A DNA stretch of 61,479 nucleotides, the filler included. It is 8 parts of 8 records of this genome, joined end to end, with 100 filler letters (N's around TTAATTAATTAA, not from the genome) between each part and the next. Parts side by side here need not be neighbours in the genome. Positions count along the whole stretch, not along the records: positions 31,666 to 44,757 come from SRR31156797_21853; 7 more parts are not named here. One strand, written 5' to 3'. Below the pieces are notes generated by a model, which was not told where the DNA came from, did not search any database, and saw only the letters and a list, made by a program, of their open reading frames with translations. Below are positions 5,328 to 50,166 of this stretch, in pieces. Position 1 is the stretch's first letter; each line of letters begins with the position of its first letter. A program made the position numbers and the translations under genes.

Positions 5328-5679
5328 CGTTAAATTTTTTCTTTTTATGTTTCTCTTTTTTGTAGCGGTTATTGTTTTTAAGTTTATCTAAAAGGTTGGA
5401 TTGTTTTAGGATTTTTGCTTTTTCATTTTCAAAATCCTCTGAGTGATTCTCTAAAGTATCAAGAATAATTTGTGCAAGGTTTTTTACCGCAATTGGATAT
5501 TCACTATAAAGCTCACAAGTAGGAGCTTTTTTAAGATCTTCATAGCCTTTTAAAATCGCTTTTTTATAAAGCTCTAGATCAAAGTTGTCATATTTTAAAA
5601 GACCAATAGCTTTAGTATTGAACTTTTCAAGGATTCTTATATATCGAAGTCGGGTGGTTTTTTCGTTTCTTTTTTCCAT
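5317..5679 (-). CDS. Hypothetical protein (120 aa, basic C-terminus)
   Basis: Clean ORF overlapping the recD2 start. Confidence 0.75.
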   Translation of the reverse strand: MEKRNEKTTRLRYIRILEKFNTKAIGLLKYDNFDLELYKKAILKGYEDLKKAPTCELYSEYPIAVKNLAQIILDTLENHSEDFENEKAKILKQSNLLDKLKNNNRYKKEKHKKKKFNDGY

Positions 5680-5682
5680 ATC

Positions 5683-5724
5683 TTAGATTCGATAATTGGC
5701 ATTGATCTTTATATTTTCGTACGT
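5683..5724 (-). pseudogene. Relic copy of an argJ 3' end (TYENIKINANYRI*)
   Basis: Matches the ArgJ C-terminus YEYVKINADYRT* at 8/12 residues with an aligned stop. Confidence 0.65.
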
Positions 5725-5726
5725 GC

Positions 5727-5750
5727 AAAAAGTGACGTTAGTCACTTTTT
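5727..5750 (-). terminator. Intrinsic terminator after argJ
   Basis: AAAAAGTGAC-GTTA-GTCACTTTTT hairpin. Confidence 0.7.
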
Positions 5751-5761
5751 GGTTTTTGTAA

Positions 5762-6943
5762 TTATGTTCTATAGTCTGCATTAATTTTCACGTACTCATA
5801 TCCAAGATCACATCCCCAAGCTGTAAAGTTTCCAGTCCCAAGTCCTAGATCACAGATCACTTTATAACTTGACTCTTTTAAAACTTCACCAGCTTTTGCC
5901 TCTTGATTTTCATCAAAAAGGATTTCCCCTTTGTTATAGACCATCACATTATTATATGCTATGGTAAGTGTTGTCTCATCACAAGTTATACCACTTGCTC
6001 CAATAGTTGAAGCGATTCGTCCAAAATTTGGATCTTCTCCATATAGTGCAGTTTTTACTAAAAGTGAATTTGAAAGAGCTTTTGCTGCTATCTCAGCTTC
6101 AGAATCGTTTGCTGCCCCTTTTACTTCAAAAGCAACTGCTTTTTTTGCACCCTCTCCATCAGCTACCATTAACATTGCCATATCATGCATCACCATTCTA
6201 AGAGCCTCTTTAAAAGCTTCTTTCTCATAGGCACCTGATTTTTTATTTGATAAAAGAAGAACAGTGTCATTTGTAGAAGTATCTCCATCAACGCTAATTG
6301 CATTAAATGTTGTATGAGAATTGAGTTCTAATAACTCTTTCATATCTTGTTGTGGTACATTTGCATCTGTACAGATAAAACAAAGCATTGTCGCTAAGTT
6401 TGGATTGATCATCCCTGCACCTTTTGCAACTGAGCCTATTTTAAAACTGCTTCCATCTTCAAGTTTTACTTCATAAAGAGAGGTTTTTGGATAGGCATCA
6501 GTTGTCATAATAGCATGTGAGAGGTTCTCTCCATTTTTAGCTTTTAGATTAAAAAGATTCGCACCATCAATGATTTTATTAATTGGAAGTGGATTTGCAA
6601 TCACTCCTGTACTACTCATAATAGGATTTGTTACTTGGTGATTTAAAGAAGAAAAAATAGTCTCAATATCTATGATCCCTTTTTCTCCTGTAAGTGCATT
6701 TGCATTTTTAGAATTTATCAATACAAAGTTTGTTTGAAACCCTTTTTCATATCTTTGAAAATGTTTGAGAGGTGCTGCTTGAAATTTATTTTTCGTAAAA
6801 ACAGCTTCCACATCACATAAACTATCACTATAGATAAATCCAAGATCAAGTTTTTCATTTGTTTTTAATCCTGCATGGATCCCATCACAATAAAATCCAT
6901 CTATTTGATCAATATATCCTTTTATAGGAAAAATACTAAACAT
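5762..6943 (-). CDS. argJ: Bifunctional glutamate N-acetyltransferase / amino-acid acetyltransferase
   Basis: AIMTTD, KGAGMINPNLATML, DGDTSTND, DGEGA, KINADYRT. Confidence 0.95.
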   Translation of the reverse strand: MFSIFPIKGYIDQIDGFYCDGIHAGLKTNEKLDLGFIYSDSLCDVEAVFTKNKFQAAPLKHFQRYEKGFQTNFVLINSKNANALTGEKGIIDIETIFSSLNHQVTNPIMSSTGVIANPLPINKIIDGANLFNLKAKNGENLSHAIMTTDAYPKTSLYEVKLEDGSSFKIGSVAKGAGMINPNLATMLCFICTDANVPQQDMKELLELNSHTTFNAISVDGDTSTNDTVLLLSNKKSGAYEKEAFKEALRMVMHDMAMLMVADGEGAKKAVAFEVKGAANDSEAEIAAKALSNSLLVKTALYGEDPNFGRIASTIGASGITCDETTLTIAYNNVMVYNKGEILFDENQEAKAGEVLKESSYKVICDLGLGTGNFTAWGCDLGYEYVKINADYRT

Positions 6944-7237
6944 ATTGAAGCTCCTTTGGCTTTTCTGGTTTATTTATTAATTTTTTAGCTCTTACGATAC
7001 CTGTTTGGTTCCCAACCACTAAAAGCTTACATCCTTGCGTTACTTTTGTAGTTGCTTTTGGAGTTTGTACAAATTTTCCATTTGCTTCAGTGATCCCAAT
7101 AATACTTACTTTAAGTTTATCTCTTAGATGTGCATCTTTAATTGGCTGGTCTATAAACCAACTATAATCTTCGATATCGATCTCTTCCATATCAATTGGA
7201 GTGTCTTTTTTATATAAAAACTCTTCAAGTACATTTT
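6936..7237 (-). CDS. Potassium channel/TrkA-family protein, TrkA-C (RCK-C) end only (5' truncated)
   Basis: LRDKLKVSIIGI...LLVVG RCK-C pattern; frame reaches the contig edge. Confidence 0.7.
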
Positions 7238-7337
7238 NNNNNNNNNNNNNNNNNNNNNNNNNNNNNNNNNNNNNNNNNNNNTTAATTAATTAANNNNNNN
7301 NNNNNNNNNNNNNNNNNNNNNNNNNNNNNNNNNNNNN
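7238..7337. other. Artificial contig-joining spacer; identical spacers at 15167-15266, 25788-25887, 31566-31665, 44758-44857, 50043-50142 and 56321-56420
   Basis: Identical 100-nt N44-TTAATTAATTAA-N44 block with stops in all six frames; genes are truncated and composition shifts at each one. Confidence 0.98.
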
Positions 7338-7338
7338 T

Positions 7339-9000
7339 GATATTTTAGATTTTAGTAAAATCGAAGCGGGTAAACTTAGTATGGAAAAAATTACATTTAA
7401 TATCCATGATGTCTTGGAAAATATTTCAAATTTATTAAGTTTAAAAGCTCATGAAAAAGGGATAGATTTTTTGATTAATAAAGATGAAAAAATTCCGTCC
7501 AATCTAATTGGAGATCCTTTGAGATTGGGGCAAATATTATTAAATTTAACAAGTAATGCAGTAAAATTTACTGAAAAGGGAAAAGTAATAATTCGAATAG
7601 AAGCTAAGAAAATTAGAAAGGATAAGATTCAGATTCTTTTTTCTGTAGAGGATACAGGTATAGGGATGACAAAGGAGCAGGAAGGAAAGTTGTTTAAGGC
7701 TTTTTCTCAGGCGGATAGCTCTACAACAAGAAAATTCGGAGGAACAGGTTTAGGGCTTACAATTTCACAGACTTTAGTAGAATTAATGGATGGTGAGCTT
7801 GGTTTTGAGACAGTATACGGAGAAGGAAGTATTTTTTACTTTACTGTTGAATTTGGAATAAGTGCTGATAAAACTTCTGATTCTGAGACAACTCAAAACA
7901 TAAATAAAATTAAAGAGACTAAATTTAATTATCCGGAAGGTTTTTTGGCTATAAGAGGAGCTCAAATTTTACTTGTTGAAGACAATGAAATAAATCAGCA
8001 AGTGGCACAGGAGATACTTGAATTTGAAGGAATCAGAGTTGACATTGCCTCAAATGGACAGATTGCTGTGGAAAAAGCAGATAAAAAACAATATGATCTA
8101 ATCTTGATGGATTTGCAAATGCCTGTCTTAGATGGTTATGAAGCAACAGATAAGATAAGAAAAAGAAGTAAGTTTCCAAAAGTACCAATAATTGCACTAA
8201 GCGCTGATGCAATTGCCGGAATAGAGCAAAGAGTCTTAAGCTCAGGTATGAATGATTTTATAACAAAACCAATTGAGAAGAAAGAATTATTTGAAACATT
8301 GGCTAAATGGATAAAAATATCCGATAGAAACAGAGAGTTAAATACTTTGGAAATAAACAGTGTACACATGATCTTAGAAGAAAAAATAGTAGAAATACTT
8401 AAAAATATTGATGCAAAAGATGGTATATCAAGACTTATGGGAAATGAAGAGAAATACTTGGAACTTCTAAGAAAGTTTAGCTTTAATAATAGTAATTATG
8501 TAAAAACGCTATTAAAAGTAATTAGTGAAAGAAATAAAGAAGAGAGTATAAGAATTATTCACACAATGAAAGGTGTAGCCGGGAATATTGGCGCAAAAAC
8601 GCTTTATAATCTCTCTGATAATTTGCAGAAAGAATTAGAACAAGCAGATATAAACTCTGATAGAAAAGATAGTCTGATTTTGGAGCTTGATAATGAGCTT
8701 AAAATCATTCTAAAACAAATCAAAAGGCTTTTATCAGAATTAGATGTTATAAAAAATAAAGAAGCTGAATCTGGTCTTGAAATAGGTTCAGAAGTTTTTA
8801 TTGAAAAAATAAATAAATTAAAAGAGCTTTTAAATGAATCTGATATGAGTGCAGAAAAATTATTTTTAGAGCTAAAAAAATATTCTAATAAATTTGAATT
8901 AGAGAATAAGTTTGAAAAGATGGCAATTTATCTTCGAGATTATGAATATGATGAAGCTGCTGAGCTGTGCGACGAGATCATAGAGGATTTAAGTAATTAA
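7339..9000 (+). CDS. Hybrid sensor histidine kinase (HATPase-REC-Hpt), 5' truncated
   Basis: DILDFSKIEAGK; GDPLRLGQILLNL; GGTGLGL; receiver LLVEDN...LMDLQMP; Hpt HTMKGVAGNIGA. Confidence 0.92.
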   Translation, partial: DILDFSKIEAGKLSMEKITFNIHDVLENISNLLSLKAHEKGIDFLINKDEKIPSNLIGDPLRLGQILLNLTSNAVKFTEKGKVIIRIEAKKIRKDKIQILFSVEDTGIGMTKEQEGKLFKAFSQADSSTTRKFGGTGLGLTISQTLVELMDGELGFETVYGEGSIFYFTVEFGISADKTSDSETTQNINKIKETKFNYPEGFLAIRGAQILLVEDNEINQQVAQEILEFEGIRVDIASNGQIAVEKADKKQYDLILMDLQMPVLDGYEATDKIRKRSKFPKVPIIALSADAIAGIEQRVLSSGMNDFITKPIEKKELFETLAKWIKISDRNRELNTLEINSVHMILEEKIVEILKNIDAKDGISRLMGNEEKYLELLRKFSFNNSNYVKTLLKVISERNKEESIRIIHTMKGVAGNIGAKTLYNLSDNLQKELEQADINSDRKDSLILELDNELKIILKQIKRLLSELDVIKNKEAESGLEIGSEVFIEKINKLKELLNESDMSAEKLFLELKKYSNKFELENKFEKMAIYLRDYEYDEAAELCDEIIEDLSN

Positions 9001-31665: not shown

Positions 31666-33832
31666 AAAAGTTTCCCAGTCAACACCCGGTGTAAACAATG
31701 CCAATTCAGTAAATGTTTCCGGGTCCGAAGGATCTGTAACTGTACCAAAAGCACAGTCCTGGAGGATGTTACCCTGCTCACCCAGATCAAAATAGATCTT
31801 ATCTGCAGGTTCAATTTCAATGGCCGGGGTAACCAGCATTACCGGATTATCTGTCCAGCTTTGCCTGAAGAAAATTACCTTTCCATCATACCAGTATAAG
31901 AAATCCGAACCTGTCATATGTGTTGTCCAGTCAGAAGGAATTTCAGTATCAAACATTTCGAACCAGTAAAATTGGGGAACTGCTAATGTTATAGTAACAG
32001 AAACATCCTGATCAACAACTGTTACACTACCGGAGTTAGGGTAATATCCTTCTGCCTCGACGTTAATAGCATAAGTACCAGGAACTACATCATTGTATAA
32101 AACAATACCTGCTGTGTTGGTGGTTTTAATACCATTTGATTCCAGCGTTACTTCAGCACCTTCAATTGGATTTTCTTCTTCATCTTCAATAGTAATTTCT
32201 ACAGTATAAGTAGCTGTTGAACTTTCAACATCTAATACAGCGGACTGAACAATGCTTTTATCAGTATCATCCTGCACAAAAACTATTACTGCCAGGTCAT
32301 TGGGAGTCTCCATAAAGGTTAGGCTCATATCATATGATTCACTCAAGGAAACTGATACACCGGTTGACAGTGCATCCAGTGCGGTACCATTGGCATCAGG
32401 CAACATTTTCATCATTACATTATGGAATTCGGTCTCGCCATTTGTACCAACATTTTCAACTGTCAGTTTTTCCACAACCACGATGTGTGCAGTTAGTCCT
32501 GCGGCATAATCATTTAAGGGTGTTAAGTCAGCAGAAATTGAAATCTCCAGGTTTTCATCAATACTTGCCTCGGTGATATCAATTTCAAGTGCAGTTACAT
32601 CATCGGCATAAACATCAAAGATTTCCTGAGATATACTAACTGCAGGTTCGATCTGGTTAGAATTAATATAGAGATCAGGAACCCAGATACATCCATAATA
32701 ATCTCTTCTGACACCACCTTCTACATTATAATATGGGTCACCACTACCAGGCCAGTTCATTTGGTATTTAATAAGTGAATACTCACCTGGATTGGCTCCC
32801 AGAACTTCTTCAATGGCTTCGTTTGCAAATACACAAGGCGCACAAGTTGAACTTGTAAATTCCTCATAAAGAGGTTTTTTTGCTATTAGACCATCCATTA
32901 CCTCAAAGTCAACACTCATCATGTCGTTATCCGGATTTTCATCACCTGATAAATCAACTGTAACCTGCGCAACATAAGTACCTTCAACCGCTACCCAGGC
33001 TGGGAAAGCAACTGAAGTTTCTTCAAAACCTCCCAGATCTGTAACAGTAACAGTTTCAGTATATATTGAAGAGCCACCATTAAGAATTTCAAATACTACA
33101 TCAAAAGTCGCTATTTCAGCCCCTGCATTGCCAACAATTGCTCCAGGTACCACACTCATTCCAGTACCCAATAATAATGGCATATCAACCATAGTAACCC
33201 CGGCATCCAGGGATAATGCTTCGCTTAATAACACATCATCAATGTACCATTGATTTAACTGGAATGAATCACCATCAAAAGTAAATGCAATTTGAAAATT
33301 ATCACTTCCAACATCATCATTATCTATTAATAAGTATTGGGTTTCAGGGCCAACATCGGCCGATATCTCAACTACCCACACTTCGTTCCATGTAGCTCCA
33401 TCACTGGTAGTTTCAACCATTACTGAATAACCTCCACCGTAGTCATTAACGTAATGTTTGAATTCCAGTAGCAGTGCCGAATAGCCATTTGTGGCAATTT
33501 CAGAAGTTACCAGTTTCGAATTTCCAACAAACTGGGGCGTCCAGCTTATCATAGCTTCCGGAGCTTCACCTCCTGCATTATTTGATGTAGCTTCTAACCA
33601 GTTTCCGGCACCATCACCTACAATTGTCCAACCATCAGGTGGGAAAATCCCACTGGAAAAATCCTCAGTAAAAAAAGGCATCTTTGCTATCCAGAATTAT
33701 TCCGGAGGGTTTATAGTCTTTCGAATATTCAACATTTTGTAAAGGCATTCGTGACATATGCTGTGCAAAAGTTACTAATGCAGGCATCAACATTAAGCAA
33801 ACCAGCAATAATTTAAATGTAAGTTTTTTCAT
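31666..33832 (-). CDS. Large secreted adhesin-like protein with Omp28/thioredoxin-like domain; +1 frameshift at 33670-33676; 3' truncated
   Basis: Signal peptide MKKLTFKLLLVCLMLMPALVTFAQ from 33832; adhesin-like FTEDF..FPP.GW; CARDB-like DENPDND; EEFTSSTCAPC; NGETEFHNVMMKMLP. Confidence 0.8.
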
Positions 33833-33859
33833 AGTTTTAAAATTTAATGAATAAAATTG

Positions 33860-34027
33860 TTACTTATTAGTATTAGAATTTCCTTCGGAATTTAATTTGG
33901 ACATGATTTTTTTGAAGGCTTCGGTTTGAATCCTTTTCTTCTCGATAAATTCGCTTAAATCGACACCTTCCGAATTTGAGGTGGAAGGTTTGGGAGAGGA
34001 TGCTTTTTTAGGTTTTTTAGCTGCCAT
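33860..34027 (-). CDS. Small basic protein, 55 aa (MAAKKPKKASSPKPSTSNSEGVDLSEFIEKKRIQTEAFKKIMSKLNSEGNSNTNK)
   Basis: Hand-translated; homologous to 39558-39713; follows a consensus promoter; stop 27 nt before the next ATG. Confidence 0.78.
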   Translation of the reverse strand: MAAKKPKKASSPKPSTSNSEGVDLSEFIEKKRIQTEAFKKIMSKLNSEGNSNTNK

Positions 34028-34051
34028 TTTTGTGGGTTAAAAATTCAGGGT

Positions 34052-34083
34052 CAAAACTAAAATCAGAAAACCCTCAAGCCAAA
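34052..34083 (-). promoter_or_regulatory. Bacteroidota primary-sigma promoter
   Basis: -33 TTTG (34083-34080), 20-nt spacer, -7 TAGTTTTG (34059-34052). Confidence 0.7.
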
Positions 34084-34208
34084 TTTTCTACTGACACAAA
34101 ACCAATAATTGCAGGAAAATCACTGACACAATACTAATACGATGAATAGTAAGGGGTTGTAAATGTGAAATATGGCTTGTGGATGGATGTAATCCGGAAT
34201 CAAAAGTG

Positions 34209-34341
34209 GAGTCCGCTCCGAAAAGCCAAAAACAAGAATTGCCACGAAAACACTAATTCACAAAAACCCCACAAAAGATAGAAAATCAACAATTTGTTTT
34301 TAGTGATTTTGTGGCAAAAAAACACTTTTCAGAGTGGGCTC
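34209..34341. mobile_element. MITE/REP-like element with nested inverted repeats
   Basis: Outer IR GAGTCCGCTCCGAAAAG / CTTTTCAGAGTGGGCTC (14/17); inner IR TTGCCACGAAAACACTAA / TTAGTGATTTTGTGGCAA (16/18). Confidence 0.55.
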
Positions 34342-34372
34342 ATGGGTAAATTACAATATCGTGGCTCGAGGG

Positions 34373-36100
34373 CTAAATTTGAGAAAGGAAAGTAACAAGA
34401 TTGGTCTTTGTATTTACAAGTCCAAGTTTTTTACGTAGGCGGGTCCGGGCCACCTCAATGGTGTGTACCTGCTGGCCCGTTAATTCCGAAACCTCTTTGG
34501 TGGTCATATTTAAACGAAGGAATGCACAGAGCTTTTGTTCATTGGGTGATAAATCAGGAAATTGTTCCAGCAGTTTGCTATAAAATTCACCATGTACCTG
34601 TTTGAACCGGGTTTCAAATTCCTGCCAGATTTCATCATCTGTAGTTTTTTGTAATTCGCGGGCAATTCTTTTAATGGCTGTCTTTGTCTCATCCCTCACA
34701 GCTTCATTTTGGATATCCATTAATTTATCAGCGATTTCAGAAAGGATTTCATTTTTACGCATAAGGATCATTACATTGGAAGCCAGTTCTTTATTTCGAA
34801 TTTCAAGCTCCGATTTAAGTTTGCGTTTTTCAATTTCCTGGTTTTTCCTTTTTAGTCTATATCTATTTATTACAATAATCACAAAAATTATGAGAAAAAA
34901 TAACAGGCTGATTCCGATAAAAATGTAAGTGTACTCCCTTTTTTGCTGTTTTAACCTATTTTCTTGTTCAATTTTATCAAATTCATATAATAGTTCAAGT
35001 TGTGAAAGACGTGTCATTTTTTTCTCTATGTCGAGGCTATCTTTCATCTGATAATGTATCGTACTGTAAAGGTATGCGTTATTAAGATCATTTTTGTTTT
35101 TATATAATTCGTGAAGAAGTATTGCAGCATTATAAATTGTCTTTTTTAGGTTGTTCTTCTGGCCGATATCGTATGCCAACTTTGCGTAATACAAACTACT
35201 GTCTTGTTGATTCAAATCAGAATAATACATCGAAAAATTATTATAAACAGCAGCTAGCTTTGGCAGGTTATTTAATTCTTTAAATATTATAGCTGCAGCA
35301 TTGTAATAGTAAAATGAAGTATCATAGCTTTTTTCATTTTTATATACAGAGCCCAGATTTAAATAATTAATGCCTTCCCATAATCTATTTCCGATTTTTT
35401 TATTGATCTCAATTGCTTCCTTTAAATATGACTTAAAATTCTGAGAGTCTCCCTTATTGCCATAAACAGCAGCAACATTATTAAGCCCTCTTGCAATACC
35501 ATCCAAATCGTCTATTTCAGTTGCTAACGCTAATGATCGCTGAAAATACTCTAAAGCTTCATCATAATTTTGCTGTTCAAAATAATCATTACCTATCCGA
35601 TTTAAAGCTTTGCCTATTCCTTGTTTATCTTTTAGTTTTTCATAAATTACCAGTACCTGAAAATTCAAATCTGAACTTTTTTCAATATCACCTAAATCCA
35701 AATAGTTTCTTGAAATCAGGCCCAGAGACTCCGCCAACTCCTTTTGCAGATTTAGGCTTTCAGCAATCAATCTGGCTTTGTTTCCGAAATCAAGGGAGCT
35801 TCTAATATCGGTTTTAGACCAGTAAATTTCACTTATTTGAAGGTAAGCGCGAAGTTTGCTTTCGTGGTCATTATTTTTTATGGCCAACTCAAGCGTTTGG
35901 TTGGCCAACTCAAGCGCTTTATCAGGATCAGAAGACAACAACAAGTCGGTGAGGTCAATTAAAATGTCAATTTTCTTTTGGATATCCGCTTCCTTTGACA
36001 ATACAATCTCAAGGCTGTCGATTTTATGCTGGTATTGACCAATAAGTTGGCCGGTTAGTAAAAGGAATCCCAGTAGTATGATTTGATATTTGCGAAGCAT
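34373..36100 (-). CDS. Membrane-spanning TPR-sensor / LuxR-type HTH regulator (copy A)
   Basis: Signal peptide, TPR repeats (ALNRIG, GLNNVA, YLNLG), one TM, coiled coil, HTH LSPNEQKLCAFLRLNMTTKEV...ARTRLRKKLGL. Confidence 0.88.
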   Translation of the reverse strand: MLRKYQIILLGFLLLTGQLIGQYQHKIDSLEIVLSKEADIQKKIDILIDLTDLLLSSDPDKALELANQTLELAIKNNDHESKLRAYLQISEIYWSKTDIRSSLDFGNKARLIAESLNLQKELAESLGLISRNYLDLGDIEKSSDLNFQVLVIYEKLKDKQGIGKALNRIGNDYFEQQNYDEALEYFQRSLALATEIDDLDGIARGLNNVAAVYGNKGDSQNFKSYLKEAIEINKKIGNRLWEGINYLNLGSVYKNEKSYDTSFYYYNAAAIIFKELNNLPKLAAVYNNFSMYYSDLNQQDSSLYYAKLAYDIGQKNNLKKTIYNAAILLHELYKNKNDLNNAYLYSTIHYQMKDSLDIEKKMTRLSQLELLYEFDKIEQENRLKQQKREYTYIFIGISLLFFLIIFVIIVINRYRLKRKNQEIEKRKLKSELEIRNKELASNVMILMRKNEILSEIADKLMDIQNEAVRDETKTAIKRIARELQKTTDDEIWQEFETRFKQVHGEFYSKLLEQFPDLSPNEQKLCAFLRLNMTTKEVSELTGQQVHTIEVARTRLRKKLGLVNTKTNLVTFLSQI

Positions 36101-36231
36101 TGCTGCAAAAGTACGAAATCAGTTTAAGGTTAAAAGTTCAGAGATTGAAAGAACCAAAACAAAAGCCTCGGTCCTTGTTAAAGATCGGGGCGTTAAAATA
36201 TTCACGGGGTGGCTTTGATCAAAACCAATTC

Positions 36232-36271
36232 ACCGGGCGACTATTCTCAGCTTTGAGAGTAGTCACCCGGT
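36232..36271 (-). terminator. Long hairpin just after the secreted-protein gene
   Basis: ACCGGGCGACTATTCTCA-GCTT-TGAGAGTAGTCACCCGGT. Confidence 0.6.
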
Positions 36272-36286
36272 AAATTCTTCTCGGTG

Positions 36287-39200
36287 TTATTCAATCACCA
36301 GCTTCTCAGTAATTATTTGATTGTTGAAAAAAACTTTTACAAAATAGATACCCGGTTCAAAATCAAAGGTATTAATCTCTGTTTTGCTTGCTGCTGTGTT
36401 TTGTTCAAAAATCAATTGCCCCGAAACGTTGAAGATATTTACTGATTCCATTATGTTTCCTGATTCAATGTAAACAAGATCGGAAGCAGGATTGGGAAAT
36501 ACCCGGGTTGTACTGGCCAGTTTTTCATTTATACCGGTTACAACATCAATGACAAATTCATTAGAAGGGCCAGATTCACCATTTAAATAAACTGAAGTTA
36601 CGTAATATGTATGGGTGCCTATTTCAGGACCAGCATGGGTGTAGGTTGTGTCAGTAGTATAACCGATGTTTTCGAAAACACCGGAGTTATATTTATGATA
36701 TATATTATAGCCTAATAATCCATTACCCAAAGATTTAGATTCTGCTCTTCCTAAACTAATATTATCAAGCGAAGTAGCATTGCCGTCAGTATAATTATTT
36801 TCCACATATTCCCTAAACGCAATATAAATAGGTGTTCCATCTGGAACAATGCTTGTAAGATCGTATGAATAGTAAGTCCAGCCAATTGGAGTACTGCTGG
36901 GTATATCAATTATATCTACAACAATATTGAATGCTTCAGGATCGTCGGGTACACTAGTTGAGATTAAAACCTCTAAATGTTCTGTCCAGTCATCCCGATA
37001 AATACCCATCCAAAAACTAAGTGTATCCCCTTCAGAATAAGTAAGCTGAGGAGTTACTAACCATTGATCGCTTAGGGGGTCTCCACCCGTTAGCCAGGTA
37101 GCAAATGCCTGCTGAAGCCCTCCATTGGGACAAGCAAAAGCTACACCACCAGACCATCCAGGGATTGGTGATCCAACCTGAAGGGATTGCCATCCTGTGC
37201 CACCATCAAGGTTGAATTTGGTCCATCCTTCGGGCAAAAAGTCACCTTCAAAACCCTCAAAGAAATTAGCACTGGGTGTGCTGGGCGCATCCCAGTTTAA
37301 AGTAATATCCTCATTAAATTGCACCTCTGAAGGTCCTGTAAGGTTAGATGGAGCCTCCAATTCTGAAGAATCAACTTTTATCTCAATATGGATGTCATCG
37401 ATATAAATATTCGAATTGCCCGGATCACTAAAGCCGTGCCAACCAATATAGTATGTGCCATCTTCTTCAGGTAAAAATGAAGCATTAACAAATTGGTAAA
37501 CATTGTTATAGGCAAACATCATATCCTCAAATATTGGCTCACTGCTCATCGATGCAGAATTTGCTTCCGTTCCAAATTTAACTTCGAGGTTGTCATAATT
37601 GGAATCGGAATCAGACGTATAGTAAAAATTAACGATATACGTTTCACCACCTTCTAATTCAATACCTGGAGAAAAGAACCAGTCGTCCATTTGTAATGCA
37701 TTATTAGGCTCAATTGCTACATGATTATCGCCGCTATACGGGTTCGCATCCGAACTAATCCACTGCCATTCATCATCATTCGAATTTTCAACAACATTAC
37801 ATGGAGGCATAAAAGGTAGAATTACATCTTCAAAATCTTCAATATATGGTAGTGATACAGAGGCATTACACAGGGTTGCAAAATAATATGGACCAACCCA
37901 GTTACTTATAGATCCACCACCACAATCGGCCTGAACATAAAAGTCGTAATAAGTCCCTGGCTCTAAACTTTCCAGTAAATATGGGTTTTCGTCGGTATAG
38001 ATCATAGCATTTCCGCTTGGTGTAAATCCCATTTCCCCATATTCAATTCTCCATTGAGAGGCTTCACCATTCTCCACCCAATCCAAGATTGCAGATGTTT
38101 GTGTGATTTCACTTGCATTTAAATCAGAAGGGCTGAGGCAAGGCTGTAAATAATCGATGGCAATATTATCCAATGCGATATCCCCGCCTTGATTGTTAAA
38201 TATACCTTTAAATGCAATGTGTTCATCGGTTCCCGTATATTCATCAAAATATACTTCATATTCTTCCATTATATTGGCGTTATTTATTTCCAATACCACC
38301 AGTTCTGTATAGGTAGTGATATCTGTTGGATCAGACATGGTTCCAACTGATAGTTCAGATCCATACGACCAGGAATAGAATTGCAGGTATTTATTTGCAG
38401 CTCCTCCGTCAAGTGCTGGAGTTATTAAAAGCAAGTCTGCATCTAAATCACTAACATTCACTAATCTAACACACTTTGAATTGTCAACACCTGTATTATC
38501 AAAAGATCTAACATTTGCATAAGTATTATTAGAAATAACGATTTTGTACCATTCTTCAGGGATTTCGGGGACTACTACAGATTCAAAATCCTCATACAGG
38601 AGCTCAAAAACTGCAATATCCTTACTCATACTATCATTTTCAGGGTTTTCATCATTGGGGTGGCTTGCAGTAACTTTTGCTTCAAAGTAACCGCCAATTG
38701 ATATCCAAGCAGGGAACGTTATGGAATAAGATTCAAATGAAGCTAAATCGCTTACCATGAGTTCTTCTGAATAAACAGGGGCTCCATCATCAAGGATTTC
38801 GAAAGTTACACTAAATGTAACAGTTTCTAATCCATTGTTTTTTACAACAGCACCTGGTTCATAAGCATCGCCAGCACCCATAGTAGTAGGAATATCAATT
38901 GAAATGACTGCTGCATCGTAAGACATGGTCTCAGCAAGTGCTATATCATCGATATACCAGTTATTGATGTTATATGATGGTCCGTCGAAAGTAAAAGCAA
39001 GTTGGAAATTATCTGAACCCACATCGTCATTATCAATTATAAATTGTAAAGTCTGGGGGCCAATGTCACCATCAACCAGTTCCGACCAGATTTCATTCCA
39101 AGTATTTCCATCGCTTGTTGTTTCAATTTTCACCGTATAGCCACCCATAAAGTCATCAAGGTAATGTTTCATTTCAAATACCAGTTCGCTATAGCCTGAT

Positions 39201-39535
39201 GTTGCAATTTGGGGTGTTACCAACCTGGAAACCCCTGTGAAATCGGGGGAATAAGTCATCGAACCTTCCGGTTCAAAACCACCAGCATAATTGGTGGCAG
39301 ACAAGTACCAGTTATTTTCCCCTTCACCCTGGATTTCCCATCCTGCCGGTGGAAATGCACCATTTGTAAAATCTTCAGTAAATAATGAGTTTCTAACTGT
39401 GAAAGCGGGTGCCCTGTAATTATTATTCACCGACTCATGGCGAATTGAACGTTCACATGCTTCACGCTGCGAAAATGCAAAAATTGAAGTAGTTAATAAG
39501 AGGCATGTAAACAAAATTTTAATTGTATTTTTCAT
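36287..39535 (-). CDS. T9SS-secreted multidomain protein (cleaved-adhesin/choice-of-anchor-J-like, CARDB-like, FN3, type A CTD)
   Basis: Signal peptide MKNTIKILF...AFSQ from ATG 39535; repeated EDFE/EGFE...GW...WL.TP domains; FN3 LEPGTYYDFYVQADC; CTD VFPNPA...GIYFVKV...EKLVIE. Confidence 0.88.
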   Translation of the reverse strand: MKNTIKILFTCLLLTTSIFAFSQREACERSIRHESVNNNYRAPAFTVRNSLFTEDFTNGAFPPAGWEIQGEGENNWYLSATNYAGGFEPEGSMTYSPDFTGVSRLVTPQIATSGYSELVFEMKHYLDDFMGGYTVKIETTSDGNTWNEIWSELVDGDIGPQTLQFIIDNDDVGSDNFQLAFTFDGPSYNINNWYIDDIALAETMSYDAAVISIDIPTTMGAGDAYEPGAVVKNNGLETVTFSVTFEILDDGAPVYSEELMVSDLASFESYSITFPAWISIGGYFEAKVTASHPNDENPENDSMSKDIAVFELLYEDFESVVVPEIPEEWYKIVISNNTYANVRSFDNTGVDNSKCVRLVNVSDLDADLLLITPALDGGAANKYLQFYSWSYGSELSVGTMSDPTDITTYTELVVLEINNANIMEEYEVYFDEYTGTDEHIAFKGIFNNQGGDIALDNIAIDYLQPCLSPSDLNASEITQTSAILDWVENGEASQWRIEYGEMGFTPSGNAMIYTDENPYLLESLEPGTYYDFYVQADCGGGSISNWVGPYYFATLCNASVSLPYIEDFEDVILPFMPPCNVVENSNDDEWQWISSDANPYSGDNHVAIEPNNALQMDDWFFSPGIELEGGETYIVNFYYTSDSDSNYDNLEVKFGTEANSASMSSEPIFEDMMFAYNNVYQFVNASFLPEEDGTYYIGWHGFSDPGNSNIYIDDIHIEIKVDSSELEAPSNLTGPSEVQFNEDITLNWDAPSTPSANFFEGFEGDFLPEGWTKFNLDGGTGWQSLQVGSPIPGWSGGVAFACPNGGLQQAFATWLTGGDPLSDQWLVTPQLTYSEGDTLSFWMGIYRDDWTEHLEVLISTSVPDDPEAFNIVVDIIDIPSSTPIGWTYYSYDLTSIVPDGTPIYIAFREYVENNYTDGNATSLDNISLGRAESKSLGNGLLGYNIYHKYNSGVFENIGYTTDTTYTHAGPEIGTHTYYVTSVYLNGESGPSNEFVIDVVTGINEKLASTTRVFPNPASDLVYIESGNIMESVNIFNVSGQLIFEQNTAASKTEINTFDFEPGIYFVKVFFNNQIITEKLVIE

Positions 39536-39557
39536 AATAAAAAGCATTAGTGTAGCA

Positions 39558-39713
39558 TTATTTATCGTTATTATCAGCACTATTTAATTTATCCATGATT
39601 TTTTTCAAGGTTTCATTTTGAGTTTTTGTTTTTCGAACGAACTTATTAAATTCATATAGTTCATCCTTATTTTTCGCTCGTTTTTCACTTGATGTTTTTT
39701 TAGTATCAGCCAT
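39558..39713 (-). CDS. Small basic protein, 51 aa (MADTKKTSSEKRAKNKDELYEFNKFVRKTKTQNETLKKIMDKLNSADNNDK)
   Basis: Hand-translated; 12/25 identities to the core of 33860-34027; stop 22 nt before the next ATG. Confidence 0.78.
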   Translation of the reverse strand: MADTKKTSSEKRAKNKDELYEFNKFVRKTKTQNETLKKIMDKLNSADNNDK

Positions 39714-39973
39714 TTTTATTTACTATTTTATTGTCTTTACAAAGGTTATTATTGATTTTAAATTTGCACAAGAATGTGATAATACAAAAACCGTATTTTT
39801 GATAATATCGCCTTTAAAAAAACATTACAGTATTAATACGTACCCATACAATAGCAATACAATTATTGAATACACAATAAACTATCGACAAAAACACCTA
39901 AATTAGTAAGGGTTGTATTAAATTCCCAATTAGGGAATATTAACATAAGATTGGTTCAAGATATTACTGGGTG

Positions 39974-41695
39974 CTATATCTGAGAAAGGAAATTAATTAG
40001 GTTGGCTGAAGTATTGGCAATCCCTAGTTTTTTTCGCAAACGTGTTCTTGCAATTTCTATGGTATTAATACGCTGACCTGTTAATTCTGATATTTCTTTG
40101 GTAGTCATATTTAATCGTAGGAAGGCGCAGATCTTTTGTTCGTTTGGTGTTAAGTCGGGAAACCGTTCCAATAGTTTTTCGTAGAATTCATCATGAACCT
40201 GTTTAAACCTGATCTCAAACTCATCCCATACATCGTCTTCGGTTGTGTTTTGTAACTCATTGGCAATTTTCACTATGGCTGATTTCGTTTCTTCTTTTTC
40301 AGCCTCCCTCCTGACTTTCATCAATTTATCTGCGATATCCGAAAGGATTTCATTTTTACGCATTAAAGAAATAACATTAGAGGTAAGTTCTTTATTTTTT
40401 AAACTCAGTTCAGCTTTGATTTGCAGTCTTTTGGCTTTTTCTACCCGGCGCCGATTTAGGAGTGTAATTATAATTAACACTAACAAAAAAACGATGCTGG
40501 TTCCAATTAGAATATAAGTATATTCCCTTTGTTTTTGTGTGTTTCTTTTTTGCTCTTCCATTTTTTCATACTCATAAAGCAATTCCAAATTTGCCAGTTT
40601 TGTCATACCCCGTTCAAAATCTAAACTGTCCTTGGTATTGTATTCTTTTAAACAATACTGATATGCGTTTATGTAATCACCCTGATCAATATATGCTTGA
40701 TGTAAAAGCTTAGCGGCATCATAAACATATTTTTTTAAGTTGACTGATTCAGCGAGGTCAAGGGCTTTTTTCGCATAAAACAGACTTTTTTCAGAATTGG
40801 AAATTTCAGCATAATATGCAGACAGGAACGTGTATACTTCACAAAGTTTGGGTAGGTTGTTTAATTCACTATATAGCTTTTCCGCCTTTTTAAAATAGTA
40901 ATAAGCGGAATCATAATTATCTTCATCAAGATAAATAAAGCCCAGGTTTGCATAATTTACGCCTTCCCATAACTTATGTCCGATTTTTTTATTGATGACT
41001 ATTGCTTTTCTAAGGTTTGTTTTAAAATCCTGGATTCCACCCTTACCGGAATATGATGTGGCAACGTTGTTTAGTCCCCTCGAAATACCAATTGAATCGT
41101 TAATTTCCCCGGATATCTTTAAGGATTTTAAATCATATTCAAGTGCTTTTTCCCAATTTCCGAGCTCATAATAAACGTTTCCTATTTGACTAAGTGCTTT
41201 ACTTATGCCTTTCTTGTAATTAAGATTTTCAAATAATTCCAAAGCCTGGTAATTTAGATCTGCGCTTTTCTCATAACTTCCTAAATCTGCATAATTCTTC
41301 GATATTAACAATAAAGATTCTGCATATTCCTCCTTCATGTTTAGGTTTTCTGCAAGGTTTTTCGCCTCAAAGGCAAAATCCATGGATAACCTGTGATTGG
41401 CCATACTATTATAAACCTCGCTCAAATGCAAATAAGCCTGAAGCCTGAAATTATGATTATTGTTTATTTCAGCAATTTCAAGAACTTGTTGTGCATATGA
41501 TAGTGCACGATCCGGATCATAAGACAGAATTATTTCGGTTAGTTCAGATAAAATTTCCATCTTCGAAAGCGGATCATTTCTGCCCGTCAATAAATTCTCA
41601 AGGCTGTCAGCTATATAAATTGACTGAGCCCACGAAGAGGACATGACAAAAACAAAAAATAATACCTGGATTATTTTAATCATTACTACTTTCAA
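39974..41695 (-). CDS. Membrane-spanning TPR-sensor / LuxR-type HTH regulator (copy B)
   Basis: Same architecture as 34373-36100; NKELTSNVISLMRKNEILS; LTPNEQKICAFLRLNMTTKEI; identical terminus FLSQI. Confidence 0.88.
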   Translation of the reverse strand: MKVVMIKIIQVLFFVFVMSSSWAQSIYIADSLENLLTGRNDPLSKMEILSELTEIILSYDPDRALSYAQQVLEIAEINNNHNFRLQAYLHLSEVYNSMANHRLSMDFAFEAKNLAENLNMKEEYAESLLLISKNYADLGSYEKSADLNYQALELFENLNYKKGISKALSQIGNVYYELGNWEKALEYDLKSLKISGEINDSIGISRGLNNVATSYSGKGGIQDFKTNLRKAIVINKKIGHKLWEGVNYANLGFIYLDEDNYDSAYYYFKKAEKLYSELNNLPKLCEVYTFLSAYYAEISNSEKSLFYAKKALDLAESVNLKKYVYDAAKLLHQAYIDQGDYINAYQYCLKEYNTKDSLDFERGMTKLANLELLYEYEKMEEQKRNTQKQREYTYILIGTSIVFLLVLIIITLLNRRRVEKAKRLQIKAELSLKNKELTSNVISLMRKNEILSDIADKLMKVRREAEKEETKSAIVKIANELQNTTEDDVWDEFEIRFKQVHDEFYEKLLERFPDLTPNEQKICAFLRLNMTTKEISELTGQRINTIEIARTRLRKKLGIANTSANLINFLSQI

Positions 41696-41808: not shown

Positions 41809-42807
41809 TTAGAAAGTTTTACTGCCCAATTGCCCAAAGCCGGTAATCTGATAATTCATGCTTGATGGAATAAGGTTGTCCAGATTGCTTACACTCAACA
41901 ATGACAGGTTTTCACCATTTGCCATTTTTATCCGCAGGATAGCATCACCAGGAATTTTCTTGATTTTCTTTAGTAAATCCGTTTTCAAACTTTCAGACGT
42001 GTAATGTTCTTTTTCCAAAAACAAATCAATCATTGGCCGGGTTTTTAATGGAATGAACTTATAATCGGTTTCACGCTTATCGCTGATGTTTATTTCATAA
42101 AACCCTTTTTCCTCATCCATCTCAGCAAAGGCAGTCCGCTCGATGGAACCGGGATAAATAATTGGTTTGTCGGTTTTCGTCCGGAGAATCTGTGCCCGGT
42201 GGATGTGCCCTGAAAGAATCATATCATATTCATCGGGCAGATCGTTAATTGGAATTACATCCTGCCCGTAGCGGAAAGTAAAATCGGAAGGCCCGACTAT
42301 AGCTCCTTCGATTGACTGGTGCATGCAAAGCAACTTTACACTTTCGCCATTTAAGTGGGGTTGGATTTCTTTGGCTATTTCAGGGAATTGTGATTTCACA
42401 TCCTTTCTTAAACAAGGAAAACCTGCTATATCAAAATCAATCCCTTTGATTGAAAAATTAAAAACCTGTGGCTTCGAGTAATAATAAATATTGGGATGCT
42501 GCATAAAAAGCGATATCGGCAGCCTTGAGCTTTCGTGATTTCCGGGAACAATCACCATCGGGATGCCGGATTCGGCGAAATCAAAAATCCGCTCGTAAAC
42601 CATATCGATGATCGGGGCCGGAACCCGGGTTCTGTAAAAGAGATCGCCACCATGAATTACCAAATCTGCCATGCTGTTTTTTGCGTAAGCCAGCACCTCA
42701 TCAAAATTATTGAAGAAATCCATGCCCCTCCTCCGCTTCTCCTTTTTGGGACGCAGCGGGAAATCAAATCCCAGATGGGTGTCGGCAAGGAAAATTATTT
42801 TGATCAT
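41809..42807 (-). CDS. SbcD/Mre11-like metallophosphoesterase
   Basis: ADTHLG, GGDLF, PGNHE, MHQS, SGHIH, YPGSIER. Confidence 0.88.
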   Translation of the reverse strand: MIKIIFLADTHLGFDFPLRPKKEKRRRGMDFFNNFDEVLAYAKNSMADLVIHGGDLFYRTRVPAPIIDMVYERIFDFAESGIPMVIVPGNHESSRLPISLFMQHPNIYYYSKPQVFNFSIKGIDFDIAGFPCLRKDVKSQFPEIAKEIQPHLNGESVKLLCMHQSIEGAIVGPSDFTFRYGQDVIPINDLPDEYDMILSGHIHRAQILRTKTDKPIIYPGSIERTAFAEMDEEKGFYEINISDKRETDYKFIPLKTRPMIDLFLEKEHYTSESLKTDLLKKIKKIPGDAILRIKMANGENLSLLSVSNLDNLIPSSMNYQITGFGQLGSKTF

Positions 42808-50042: not shown

Positions 50043-50166
50043 NNNNNNNNNNNNNNNNNNNNNNNNNNNNNNNNNNNNNNNNNNNNTTAATTAATTAANN
50101 NNNNNNNNNNNNNNNNNNNNNNNNNNNNNNNNNNNNNNNNNNCGCCGCAGTCCGCTCCCAAGGGAA

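Follow-up and report, generated by a model that had tools for sequence, protein, structure and literature searches.

A recurring regulator/small-protein/T9SS-cargo cassette in Bacteroidota and its possible control by a SusR-like transmembrane regulator

ToxR/ToxS and TcpP/TcpH are inner-membrane-anchored DNA-binding transcription factors, each with a nearby small partner. Their HTH is N-terminal and of the OmpR type, and their small partners, which are membrane or periplasmic proteins, are transcribed together with the regulator. Short ORFs are also known directly 5' of the gene that is regulated, as in the case of SecM, VemP, MifM and TnaC, which have a conserved motif near the C-terminus; the secretion-monitoring arrest peptides carry a signal or membrane segment.

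Among the regulators of Bacteroidota, SusR is described, in the part of PMC3878776 that concerns its domains, as having a periplasmic sensor domain, a cytoplasmic DNA-binding domain and predicted direct-repeat sites. The BT3442 family is presented in the relevant portion of PMC2954219 as a TPR multi-domain protein heading a cluster of surface and lipoprotein genes, with MACPF proteins and lipoproteins as neighbours.

The locus described here resembles the SusR-like regulators (SusR, BT3705 and paralogs, as far as that part of PMC3878776 describes them) in its periplasmic sensor, single membrane span and C-terminal cytoplasmic HTH, all of which were found by hydropathy and predicted fold. It also resembles them in having predicted direct-repeat sites and an adjacent operon under control, a control that we infer for the present case. 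It differs in the spacing of the boxes (67 or 77 bp predicted for SusR, 11 and 33 nt here), and in that its putative target operon starts with a conserved small protein, which the same part of PMC3878776 does not report for Sus loci. The likely targets are T9SS cargo, which is the next gene in the related loci as well, and no SusC/SusD-type genes were found on the contig of the cassette. The regulators also score far below the 480-bit cutoff of the NCBIfam model SusR_regulator (NF058541; 21.3 bits for regulator B and 32.7 for regulator A), the similarity being weak (E 4.5e-8 and 1.3e-4). With BT3442 (NF053779) the locus shares a TPR multi-domain protein with surface genes next door; it differs in having T9SS cargo in place of the MACPF and lipoprotein neighbours, and a small ORF, of which the portion of PMC2954219 on this family describes none. 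BT3442_fam is among the two best NCBIfam matches that reach the C-terminal part of the regulators (E 4.8e-14 and 5.2e-10), with scores of 52.0 and 38.7 bits against a cutoff of 940. The resemblance to ToxR/ToxS and TcpP/TcpH lies in a membrane-anchored transcription factor paired with a small protein; here, in contrast, an HTH of the LuxR type stands at the C-terminus, and the small protein is a soluble one whose gene belongs to the target operon. The earlier note on this DNA knew of no account of such a unit, and our search of the literature likewise returned no description of a regulator/small-protein/cargo combination.

Two adjoining copies of the cassette

The window is a stretch of 61,479 nucleotides in which draft contigs are chained by seven N-flanked stop-codon linkers; the contig carrying both modules begins at 31666. 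We observed a tandem duplication of a three-gene cassette in this Bacteroidota genome, in two adjoining copies, and all six reading frames listed in the earlier note were found, on the minus strand. Module B consists of regulator B (39974..41695; 573 aa), small protein B (39558..39713; 51 aa), which is the first cistron of its operon, and cargo B (36287..39535; 1082 aa), whose start lies 22 nt past the stop codon of the small ORF. Module A consists of regulator A (34373..36100; 575 aa), small protein A (33860..34027; 55 aa) and an incomplete cargo A (31666..33832). In a Pfam scan, the neighbours on the contig were small ORFs, T9SS cargo genes and one Metallophos gene.

The earlier observation was partly confirmed. 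The regulators are indeed paralogs (54% identity over the full length), as are the small proteins (42% identity over 33 aa, E 4e-8), and the secreted proteins have a common N-terminal region (51% identity over 275 aa, E 5e-91). The regulator tails, said to be near-identical, are similar only: about four-fifths of the last 80 aa are identical by a hand count on the alignment, and the last 156 aa show 68% identity. The cargo of module A is neither a single ORF nor a whole gene, as had been assumed. The gene is frameshifted in a T7 run (33676-33670), where the frame of the signal peptide (33832-33665) gives way to that of the body (33681-31666), and because the window is made of joined draft contigs the gene is cut at the contig start, 31666, which leaves its C-terminal sorting domain out of sight. 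When the probable source run was assembled independently, both the length of the T7 run and the contig end came out the same.

Regulator B has a signal-like N-terminal segment, a TPR region (Pfam TPR_12, 77.9 bits), one TM, a long cytoplasmic helix, a small helical bundle and a C-terminal LuxR/FixJ-type HTH, as assigned from Pfam, hydropathy, AlphaFold2 and Foldseek. Hydropathy gave one strong TM (approximately residues 393-414 in regulator B), followed by an R/K-rich stretch, with the TPR domain on the periplasmic side, and together with the predicted fold it backs the one-component transmembrane architecture proposed earlier. The LuxR-type label for the HTH did not reach the Pfam cutoff for GerE (PF00196; 23.5 bits), the tail of regulator B scoring 15.7 bits (E 0.012) and that of regulator A not being listed. 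Sigma70_r4_2 was also below its Pfam cutoff, and the C-terminus of the NCBIfam model TtrR matched (E 2.3e-5). At the level of the fold, however, the label is backed. The AlphaFold2 model of residues 418-573 of regulator B (pLDDT 78) has the four-helix LuxR/FixJ DNA-binding fold, and its best Foldseek matches, none of them at E<=0.001, were LuxR/FixJ DNA-binding domains: RcsB, StyR, VqmA, the DosR CTD (TM 0.78, rmsd 2.1 over 62 columns), the VraR CTD (rmsd 1.0 over 48) and the LiaR DBD. The regulator would then be a SusR-like one-component transmembrane transcription factor with its TPR domain facing the periplasm, in which the single membrane helix and the long cytoplasmic helix would join the TPR domain to the HTH.

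Cargo B has a signal peptide, four stretches of choice-of-anchor J (NCBIfam choice_anch_J, NF038128; 165.9 bits over the four, cutoff 30), one fn3 domain and, at the C-terminus, a T9SS type A sorting domain (Pfam Por_Secre_tail, 50.8 bits against a cutoff of 27; NCBIfam TIGR04183, 54.4 bits against 23). The sorting domain (PF18962 / TIGR04183) and the signal-like N-terminus place it among the T9SS type A cargo. Its previous description as adhesin-like is borne out only by a marginal match to Cleaved_Adhesin (22.2 bits, cutoff 21.4); the strong labels are choice-of-anchor J, fn3 and T9SS type A. Cargo A matched Pfam CarboxypepD_reg, with Omp28 below its cutoff, and its N-terminus stayed below the choice_anch_J cutoff of 30 (21.2 bits).

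Recurrence of the cassette in other genomes

With the small ORF as the only seed, we collected 18 instances in other genomes and in metagenomes. A regulator of the family lay upstream on the same strand in 15 of the 18; two could not be judged due to contig ends, and one had none. All 18 had a protein with a signal peptide directly 3' of the small ORF. A gap of 2-51 nt was measured in eight instances, and in the others it was similarly short. Por_Secre_tail was above the Pfam cutoff in 16 of the 18 following proteins scanned, the window included, and the remaining two were cut by contig ends. The possibility raised in the earlier note, that the small ORF would have no homologs elsewhere, or only ones lying apart from regulator and T9SS genes, is thus not what was found. 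Searches seeded with the regulator gave a small ORF at five of six loci of the close subfamily and at none of 13 loci having distant regulators of the same architecture.

Some of the loci depart from the simple order. At L002, one regulator is flanked by two small-ORF/cargo operons, each with its own small ORF. At L112, the regulator and the small ORF are separated by a cargo gene (3491-7516) that lacks its own small ORF. L117 has the small ORF and cargo, and no regulator in the stretch inspected, which covers ~8 kb 5' of the small ORF, while L003 has a regulator and no small ORF on its 8.9-kb contig.

The proteins that follow the small ORF have unrelated passenger domains (choice-of-anchor J, Omp28, thioredoxin/PKD, Flg_new_2/GLUG, subtilase, GEVED and Laminin_G_3). 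The small ORF therefore goes with the regulator and the promoter and not with a type of cargo, and for the same reason its previous assignment as a dedicated partner of the surface protein is unlikely; the earlier interpretation is to this extent only partly supported. The same evidence bears on the proposal that the small protein serves the cargo, as a holdase or a targeting factor in the cytoplasm, by recognising something that all these cargo proteins share, either the signal peptide or the T9SS C-terminal domain. Its position, always directly 5' of a T9SS cargo gene and hence made in step with the cargo, would suit such a helper. However, most T9SS cargo genes lack a small ORF, including the one at L112, the distribution follows one regulator subfamily, and the family is rare, with 2 carriers among the 401 genomes of a class-wide sample, which hardly suits a general role in secretion. 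Together with the unrelated passenger domains, this makes a helper of the cargo quite improbable. On our preferred reading, the regulator, operator and small ORF would travel together, a portable platform behind which various T9SS cargo genes have come to lie.

Direct repeats upstream of the small ORFs

In an unbiased enumeration of gapped 8-mers, TGTANNGG ranked first: it was counted 21 times, where 0.81 would be expected, and 12 of the 18 upstream regions contain it. Direct TGTAnnGG repeats are present 5' of the small ORFs, spaced 11 and 33 nt; at six loci the boxes lie at approximately -112, -101 and -68 from the start codon, and the same spacing was seen elsewhere. No exact box was found in six of the 18 non-redundant upstream regions, several of which have relaxed or variant boxes. 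A triple-box scan of ~1.5 Mb on both strands, with a PWM that had been trained on the very sites later scored, gave 10 matches, all of them 5' of small ORFs.

Motif enumeration and the triple-box scan placed the operator-like repeats of module B at 39811..39861 on the minus strand, where two boxes (39861-39854 and 39850-39843) are exact TGTAnnGG and the third (39818-39811) has one mismatch, with spacings of 11 and 32 nt. The repeats of module A (34091..34141, minus strand) are variants: the boxes 34130-34123 and 34098-34091, 32 nt apart, both read TGTGTCAG, and a weaker box (34141-34134) lies 11 nt upstream. The claim that the regions upstream of the two small ORFs share motifs stands for the direct-repeat boxes and their spacing, but not for the box sequence, which differs between A and B. 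Of 20 upstream regions, 15 have TTTG at -48 to -13, compared with 22% of background windows, and we take it as the likely end of a -7-type element of the Bacteroidota promoter consensus. In module B the likely candidate (39740..39748, minus strand) ends in TTTG ~30 nt 5' of the start codon of the small ORF.

The conserved operator-like repeats support a probable control of the adjacent operon. Our preferred reading, which we regard as moderately probable, is that the small-protein/cargo operon is bicistronic and is switched on by a SusR-like transmembrane activator; a feedback of the small protein on the regulator belongs to it as a more doubtful step. The regulator would bind the three same-orientation TGTAnnGG boxes, which at spacings of 11 and ~33 nt would lie on one face of the DNA just 5' of a Bacteroidota-type promoter, and would activate a bicistronic transcript, with the ~50-aa small protein as cistron 1 and the T9SS-secreted surface protein as cistron 2. 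The locus was found in no RNA run.

Gene order could instead be kept by descent only, with the regulator controlling other genes and the repeats being unrelated promoter features. The evidence for control is all comparative, and many of the carriers may be fairly close relatives, since the small ORF was found in 4 of 16 genomes of one family against the 2 of 401 class-wide. Yet the regulators of linked loci fall to 28-35% identity to regulator B, with the cargo exchanged and the adjacency kept. The minus-strand operon of L002 is in a divergent arrangement and still has the repeats, and modules A and B differ in HTH residues as well as in box sequence. For these reasons we consider mere descent very unlikely.

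The small protein and its possible roles

A profile made from 13 members of the small-protein family retrieved 142 clusters (E<=1e-3) among 1.84 billion representatives, all of 37-88 aa, and one pair of orthologous small ORFs gave pN 0.094 and pS 0.83 (ratio 0.11). The small ORFs thus form a genuine protein family under purifying selection, and this protein of ~50 residues is previously undescribed; its profile matched nothing in the PDB below E 0.1. The conserved core, F-I-x-K-K-K-I-Q-N-x-A-L-K-K-I-I-x-K-L-N, is near the C-terminus. Nearly every residue of this 20-aa stretch is conserved, beyond one face of a helix, and the tail past it is variable (0 to ~15 residues). The protein is predicted as one helix (residues 6-49), with a pLDDT of 97 for the core. 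Signal peptides and hydrophobic segments were absent from all 58 members inspected, in which hydropathy over 11 residues peaked at 0.97. The small protein would remain cytoplasmic, a single basic helix.

These properties weigh against a signalling pro-peptide that is exported and then detected by the periplasmic TPR domain, similar to systems of the Rap/NprR/PlcR type, in which a TPR regulator has a small ORF next to it. The TPR region does match NprR and Rap profiles, among those of many other TPR proteins, and a ~50-aa ORF is located directly 3' of the regulator gene in most loci. However, RRNPP systems combine a pro-peptide having a signal sequence with a cytoplasmic TPR domain, and here the hydrophobic segment is absent and the TPR domain periplasmic. 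Pheromones of the Rap/NprR/PlcR type are usually in the C-terminal tail, whereas the conserved part here is an internal 20-aa helix followed by a variable tail, and the small ORF is in the target operon and not in that of the regulator. We consider a pro-peptide of this kind extremely unlikely.

Under the reading that we prefer, the small protein most likely docks on the cytoplasmic module of the regulator, such that the output of the operon would feed back on it. In this it would resemble the anti-activators of LuxR-type or TPR regulators (TraM-TraR, QslA-LasR and paratox-ComR), small proteins binding and modulating a transcription activator, as described for QslA and paratox; it differs from them in having no sequence relation, and its binding is weakly predicted. 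The predicted complex of residues 418-573 of regulator B with small protein B had an ipSAE of 0.43 against 0.00 for the best of three controls, with at least 87% of the contacts agreeing across runs and a partner pLDDT of at least 66. Of 78 solved complexes, 51 reach the mark used, as do 2 of 108 mismatched pairs. The band of ipSAE <=0.60 holds five of those 78 complexes and all four passing mismatches (of 180), so that 0.43 falls where passes are more often wrong, unless the pairing is likely a priori. The resemblance of the core to residues 448-458 of the regulator was not significant (hhalign E 0.31, probability 0.2%). The model weakly suggests binding; feedback on the regulator is the least certain step of our proposal, and we put it forward as tentative and somewhat doubtful.

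The small ORF may instead act in cis as a leader, its translation controlling the cargo gene through a nascent-peptide ribosome pause at the conserved K-rich core or through translational coupling, with no role for the free protein. The resemblance to SecM, VemP, MifM and TnaC is in a short ORF directly 5' of the cargo gene and a conserved motif near the C-terminus; the family differs from the secretion-monitoring arrest peptides in lacking a signal or membrane segment. In each of the 26 instances observed, the small ORF comes first in the operon, with the short gap to the cargo gene noted above. Known arrest peptides have a conserved core near the C-terminus and then a short variable tail, as is the case here, and conservation over nearly all of the core, rather than one helix face, is also what a leader would predict. 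At L002, moreover, each of the two operons served by one regulator keeps its own small ORF. On the other hand, both the tail past the core and the gap to the cargo gene vary in length, therefore there is no fixed geometry, and neither small-ORF/cargo junction of the window has an Rfam match or a terminator-like site. A stable helix is predicted for the peptide with high confidence, and the small protein scores, if weakly, above all controls against the regulator. We judge a leader to be rather unlikely.

Several features of the loci, namely the constant first position of the small ORF and the arrangements at L002, L112, L117 and L003, nevertheless suit a cis-acting leader no less well than a partner acting in trans.

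Organization of the two modules

The window carries N-flanked TTAATTAATTAA linkers at seven sites (7282, 15211, 25832, 31610, 44802, 50087 and 56365). It is a chain of draft contigs, and genes on either side of a linker are possibly not neighbours in the genome. Modules A and B are truly adjacent, since both are located on one contig (31666 to about 44760). The ORF positions proposed in the earlier note, all on the minus strand, were confirmed for both modules except for the continuity of cargo A. In module B, the regulator (41695–39974, 573 aa) precedes the small ORF (39713–39558, 51 aa) and the cargo gene (39535–36287, 1082 aa). The order is the same in module A, where the regulator (36100–34373, 575 aa) and the small ORF (34027–33860, 55 aa) are followed by an incomplete cargo gene. 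The 3′ end of this gene is lost at the contig end (31666), and it is not a single intact ORF as had been thought. Its signal peptide (33832–33665) and its body (33681–31666) are in different frames, which meet at a T7 run (33676–33670). A second assembly of the probable source run had the identical T7 length and the identical end base; this is not independent data, but it excludes an artefact of a single assembler. The T7 tract (33670–33676) could indicate a pseudogene, or it could be a slippage-prone on/off switch for the surface protein.

The proposed paralogy was borne out by the sequence comparisons. The two regulators are 54% identical end to end and 68% identical over the last 156 residues, and the small proteins are 42% identical across 33 residues (E 4e-8). 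The cargo proteins have a common N-terminal region (51% identity over 275 residues) and are divergent beyond it. A search of the whole window with Rfam at the gathering threshold gave no match.

Linkage of the regulator, the small ORF and the T9SS cargo

We analysed the domains of the cargo proteins using Pfam and NCBIfam. Cargo B has four choice-of-anchor J stretches, fn3 and a T9SS type A sorting domain. In cargo A, the N-terminus matched choice-of-anchor J below threshold, and CarboxypepD_reg and an Omp28-like part were also present. The assignment of the secreted proteins to the T9SS thus holds for cargo B, while the C-terminus of cargo A is off the contig. The next same-strand gene after the small ORF encoded a signal-peptide-like N-terminus in 26 of 26 instances, the window's two counted. 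Por_Secre_tail (Pfam) was over the cutoff in 16 of the 18 post-small-ORF proteins scanned, a set that leaves out L111, L109 and L120–L125, most of which are truncated. The two proteins under the cutoff, cargo A and the protein of locus L095 (partial, 23.4 bits), are both cut at contig ends. The passenger domains differed from locus to locus: choice-of-anchor J; Omp28-like with CarboxypepD_reg; thioredoxin/AhpC with PKD; Flg_new_2 with GLUG; a 2490-aa subtilase; GEVED; and Laminin_G_3. As these domains are unrelated across the loci, the constants of the unit are the regulator, the small ORF and the secretion signals, and the kind of cargo varies. For the same reason the small protein is unlikely to be a helper or chaperone specific to one cargo.

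Eighty genome loci were fetched with the regulator alignment. In 19 of them the match to the regulator profile reached the C-terminus, 6 being close (at least 895 bits) and 13 distant (148–317 bits). The small ORF was present in five of the six close loci, whereas the 13 distant loci and the remaining ones all lacked it. The close locus that is the exception, L003, had no small ORF on its 8.9-kb contig, where the region upstream of the regulator is off the contig. At L002, one regulator is located between two small-ORF/cargo pairs, one of them divergent, and at L005 an unrelated opposite-strand gene is located between the regulator and the small ORF. Some of the distant regulators with the same architecture (26–30% identity; L008, 9854–17825, and L013, 1078–15466) stand beside large T9SS cargo genes without a small ORF; at L008, a 125-aa signal-peptide protein takes the small-ORF place and precedes a subtilase/MAM/GEVED protein. 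Linkage of the regulator with T9SS cargo may extend beyond the small-ORF subfamily.

A non-circular test of the linkage is one seeded with the small ORF. In the five genomes behind the regulator loci, the strong small-ORF matches were those at the regulator loci plus one, L095, where regulator, small ORF and cargo were again found in order; seven weak matches in these genomes (E 0.097–0.67) were left out. Of the 401 genomes of a class-wide sample, 2 gave a small-ORF match, although non-detection here does not amount to absence; in one family, 4 of 16 genomes had it, two of them with five copies each. A metagenome scan with a 14-row alignment gave six confirmed loci among 489 pattern matches. 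The linkage expected for small-ORF homologs elsewhere was indeed observed: a member of the regulator family was upstream on the same strand in 15 of the 18 small-ORF-seeded instances, directly adjacent in 14 of these. At L112, the regulator is 4.9 kb from the small ORF, with another T9SS cargo gene intervening. At L110 and L125 the small ORF is too close to a contig end (within about 300 nt) for the linkage to be assessed, and L117 had no regulator on the fetched stretch, about 8 kb upstream of the small ORF.

L112 (3491–8904) and L117 (3846–9285), from two genomes, have in common a two-cargo layout: first a 1342-aa T9SS protein without its own small ORF, next the small ORF, and last a 341-aa thioredoxin/PKD T9SS protein. 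The regulator is adjacent in only one of the two genomes. At another locus (L113, 8484–10201, minus strand) the regulator is broken into two ORFs that overlap (270 and 305 aa), and the small ORF and the cargo gene are apparently intact despite this.

The regulator and its candidate operator

To our knowledge, the regulation of individual T9SS cargo genes is little understood beyond a few model species, and SusR-like transmembrane regulators are known almost solely from glycan utilization loci. TPR families alone were matched at the Pfam cutoffs in the regulators. The NCBIfam matches (the FimS TPR part, the BT3442 family and SusR_regulator) were all weak and far under their cutoffs. From hydropathy, each regulator has a hydrophobic N-terminus and a single strong TM near residues 390–417, followed by an R/K-rich stretch; by this arrangement, the TPR region is periplasmic and the last ~155 residues are cytoplasmic. 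The LuxR-type HTH attributed to this tail did not reach the profile cutoff (GerE, 15.7 vs 23.5 bits), and Sigma70_r4_2 of Pfam was also under its cutoff. Support for it came instead from the predicted structure. An AlphaFold2 model of regulator B residues 418–573 (25 sequences, pLDDT 78) has a 46-residue helix, three short helices and a terminal helix-turn-helix unit. Its best Foldseek matches, none of them reaching E 0.001, were all LuxR/FixJ-type DNA-binding domains (RcsB, StyR, VqmA, DosR, VraR and LiaR).

For each of 18 non-redundant small ORFs, the upstream 250 nt were taken and all 8-mers containing two free positions were counted, with background rates from 1.2 Mb of fetched loci. The top-ranked motif, TGTANNGG, occurred 21 times in 12 of the 18 regions, against 0.81 expected. 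The boxes are direct repeats, two of them 11 nt apart and the third 33 nt further. They are located at about −112, −101 and −68 from the start codon at six loci (L004, L005, L006, L110, L111 and L114), and the same spacing, shifted upstream, was found at L002 (minus strand) and in module B of the window. Upstream motifs common to the two modules had been reported; the spacing is indeed equal, but the box of module A is a variant, TGTGTCAG. Another variant, TGTAGCAG, is present at L116. Scanning about 1.5 Mb on both strands for the three-box arrangement gave 10 hits, 10/10 upstream of small ORFs. The scores of these hits are circular, as the matrix was built from the same sites; the absence of other hits is not.

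Between the last box and the start codon (−48 to −13), TTTG was present in 15 of 20 regions, compared to 22% of random windows, and it fits the −7 element of Bacteroidota promoters. Sigma-70 promoter predictions carry no meaning in this phylum. The gap from the small-ORF stop to the cargo start (2–51 nt in the eight instances measured) is too short for a promoter, and we infer that the cargo gene is transcribed together with the small ORF from the upstream promoter. A terminator scan gave 6 sites against 7.3 expected, none of them at small-ORF/cargo junctions.

Each module would then be a one-component transmembrane activator that switches on the small-protein/cargo operon by binding the three boxes, on one face of the DNA, beside the promoter. 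Differences between modules A and B in the boxes and in the HTH residues would keep the two switches separate, and the paralogous modules with their different boxes are a natural specificity test. The closest described systems are the SusR-like regulators, which, in the excerpted text of PMC3878776, combine a sensor in the periplasm with a DNA-binding domain in the cytoplasm, have predicted direct-repeat sites and activate adjacent operons. BT_3442, a TPR protein heading a surface-protein gene cluster, is uncharacterised in the excerpt of PMC2954219.

The regulator subfamily comprises 1140 proteins at E ≤ 1e-10, whose sole labels in public sources are 'TPR repeat protein' and 'CsgD family regulator'. 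A full-text literature search, at the level of listings and abstracts, returned no account of the unit or of the small protein, in agreement with the earlier note, which had regarded the three-part unit as undescribed. What is new is that a transmembrane regulator of the SusR-like kind is coupled both with T9SS cargo and with a small-protein family that is itself new; a sizeable regulator subfamily is now tied to T9SS surface proteins, with a predicted operator.

The small protein and its putative role

The small-protein family is unnamed, is covered by neither Pfam nor NCBIfam models and lacks a solved relative. A word-seeded search retrieved five called proteins of 50–54 aa. An exhaustive profile search of 1.84 billion representatives gave 142 clusters at E ≤ 1e-3 and 12 at E ≤ 1e-10. 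All clusters are of 37–88 aa, which indicates that the small protein is free-standing and never a domain within a larger protein. The core of the alignment is close to F-I-x-K-K-K-I-Q-N-x-A-L-K-K-I-I-x-K-L-N, with nearly all residues conserved; it is preceded by a polar variable N-terminus and then an acidic patch, and followed by a K/N-rich variable tail. One ortholog pair from two genomes had pS 0.83 and pN 0.094 (ratio 0.11). Judged from these sequence comparisons, the small ORF encodes a real conserved protein. Its predicted structure is a single helix (residues 6–49; core pLDDT 97).

The small ORFs matched no Pfam or NCBIfam model; the XkdX and Lsa rows of NCBIfam for small protein A were far under the cutoff and were taken as noise. 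The best PDB sequence match to the profile, a segment of a LAGLIDADG endonuclease (E 0.11), was taken as chance, and the best ESM Atlas matches (0.76–0.78) were unnamed clusters under the useful range. At L095 (~3044–3183, minus strand) the small ORF is seemingly frameshifted in an A-run close to the 5′ end, and its conserved core is not in frame with the start codon; the shift could be real or an assembly error.

It is possible, if doubtful, that the small protein is a new type of built-in modulator that docks on its cognate SusR-like activator and reports operon output to the sensor, the regulator, the three-box operator and the small ORF together forming a portable switch. Docking would be on the cytoplasmic helix/HTH module of the cognate regulator, possibly by mimicry of its conserved N-E-x-L-x-x-I-x-x-K-L helix. 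Such a switch would be insulated, and lineages would reuse it to place different T9SS surface proteins under separate environmental control. We predicted the complex of regulator B residues 418–573 with small protein B and obtained an ipSAE of 0.43 (best of three controls 0.00). The mark for support was reached by 51 of the 78 solved complexes and by 2 of the 108 mismatched pairs; at 0.60 or under, only 5 of the 78 and all 4 passing mismatches (of 180) reached it. Contact agreement in the runs was at least 87% and partner pLDDT at least 66. This modelling weakly suggests that small protein B binds the cytoplasmic part of regulator B. The small-protein profile matched the regulator profile best at regulator B residues 448–458 (N-E-I-L-S-D-I-A-D-K-L), a conserved helix that the core resembles; this match was not significant (hhalign E 0.31, probability 0.2%) and serves as a lead only.

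The small ORF could also act in cis, as a leader peptide. It is the first cistron without exception, a separate copy is present in each operon where two of them flank one regulator, and residue conservation across the core is near-complete. These three points argue against a purely trans-acting role and make the cis-acting leader a serious rival. An exported pheromone or signalling pro-peptide is unlikely, because the small protein is without a signal sequence: a hydrophobic stretch is lacking in all 58 members of the alignment. Modulation of the regulator by the small protein, if real, would be a new case in Bacteroidota in which a small protein controls a membrane sensor. The cassette, with one regulator, an operator of about 60 bp and one 150-nt ORF, is compact and therefore directly testable by reporter fusions.

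Two further features of the window were observed. A Metallophos gene (calcineurin-like phosphoesterase, 56 bits; 41809–42807, minus strand) is located immediately upstream of regulator B on the same strand, and no link of this gene with the cassette was seen at other loci. The contig at 50099–56364, which encodes an AMP-binding enzyme, a TPR protein and a FecR-domain protein, has 47–55% G+C compared to 28–39% in the rest of the window, and may be foreign or a contaminant in the draft assembly.
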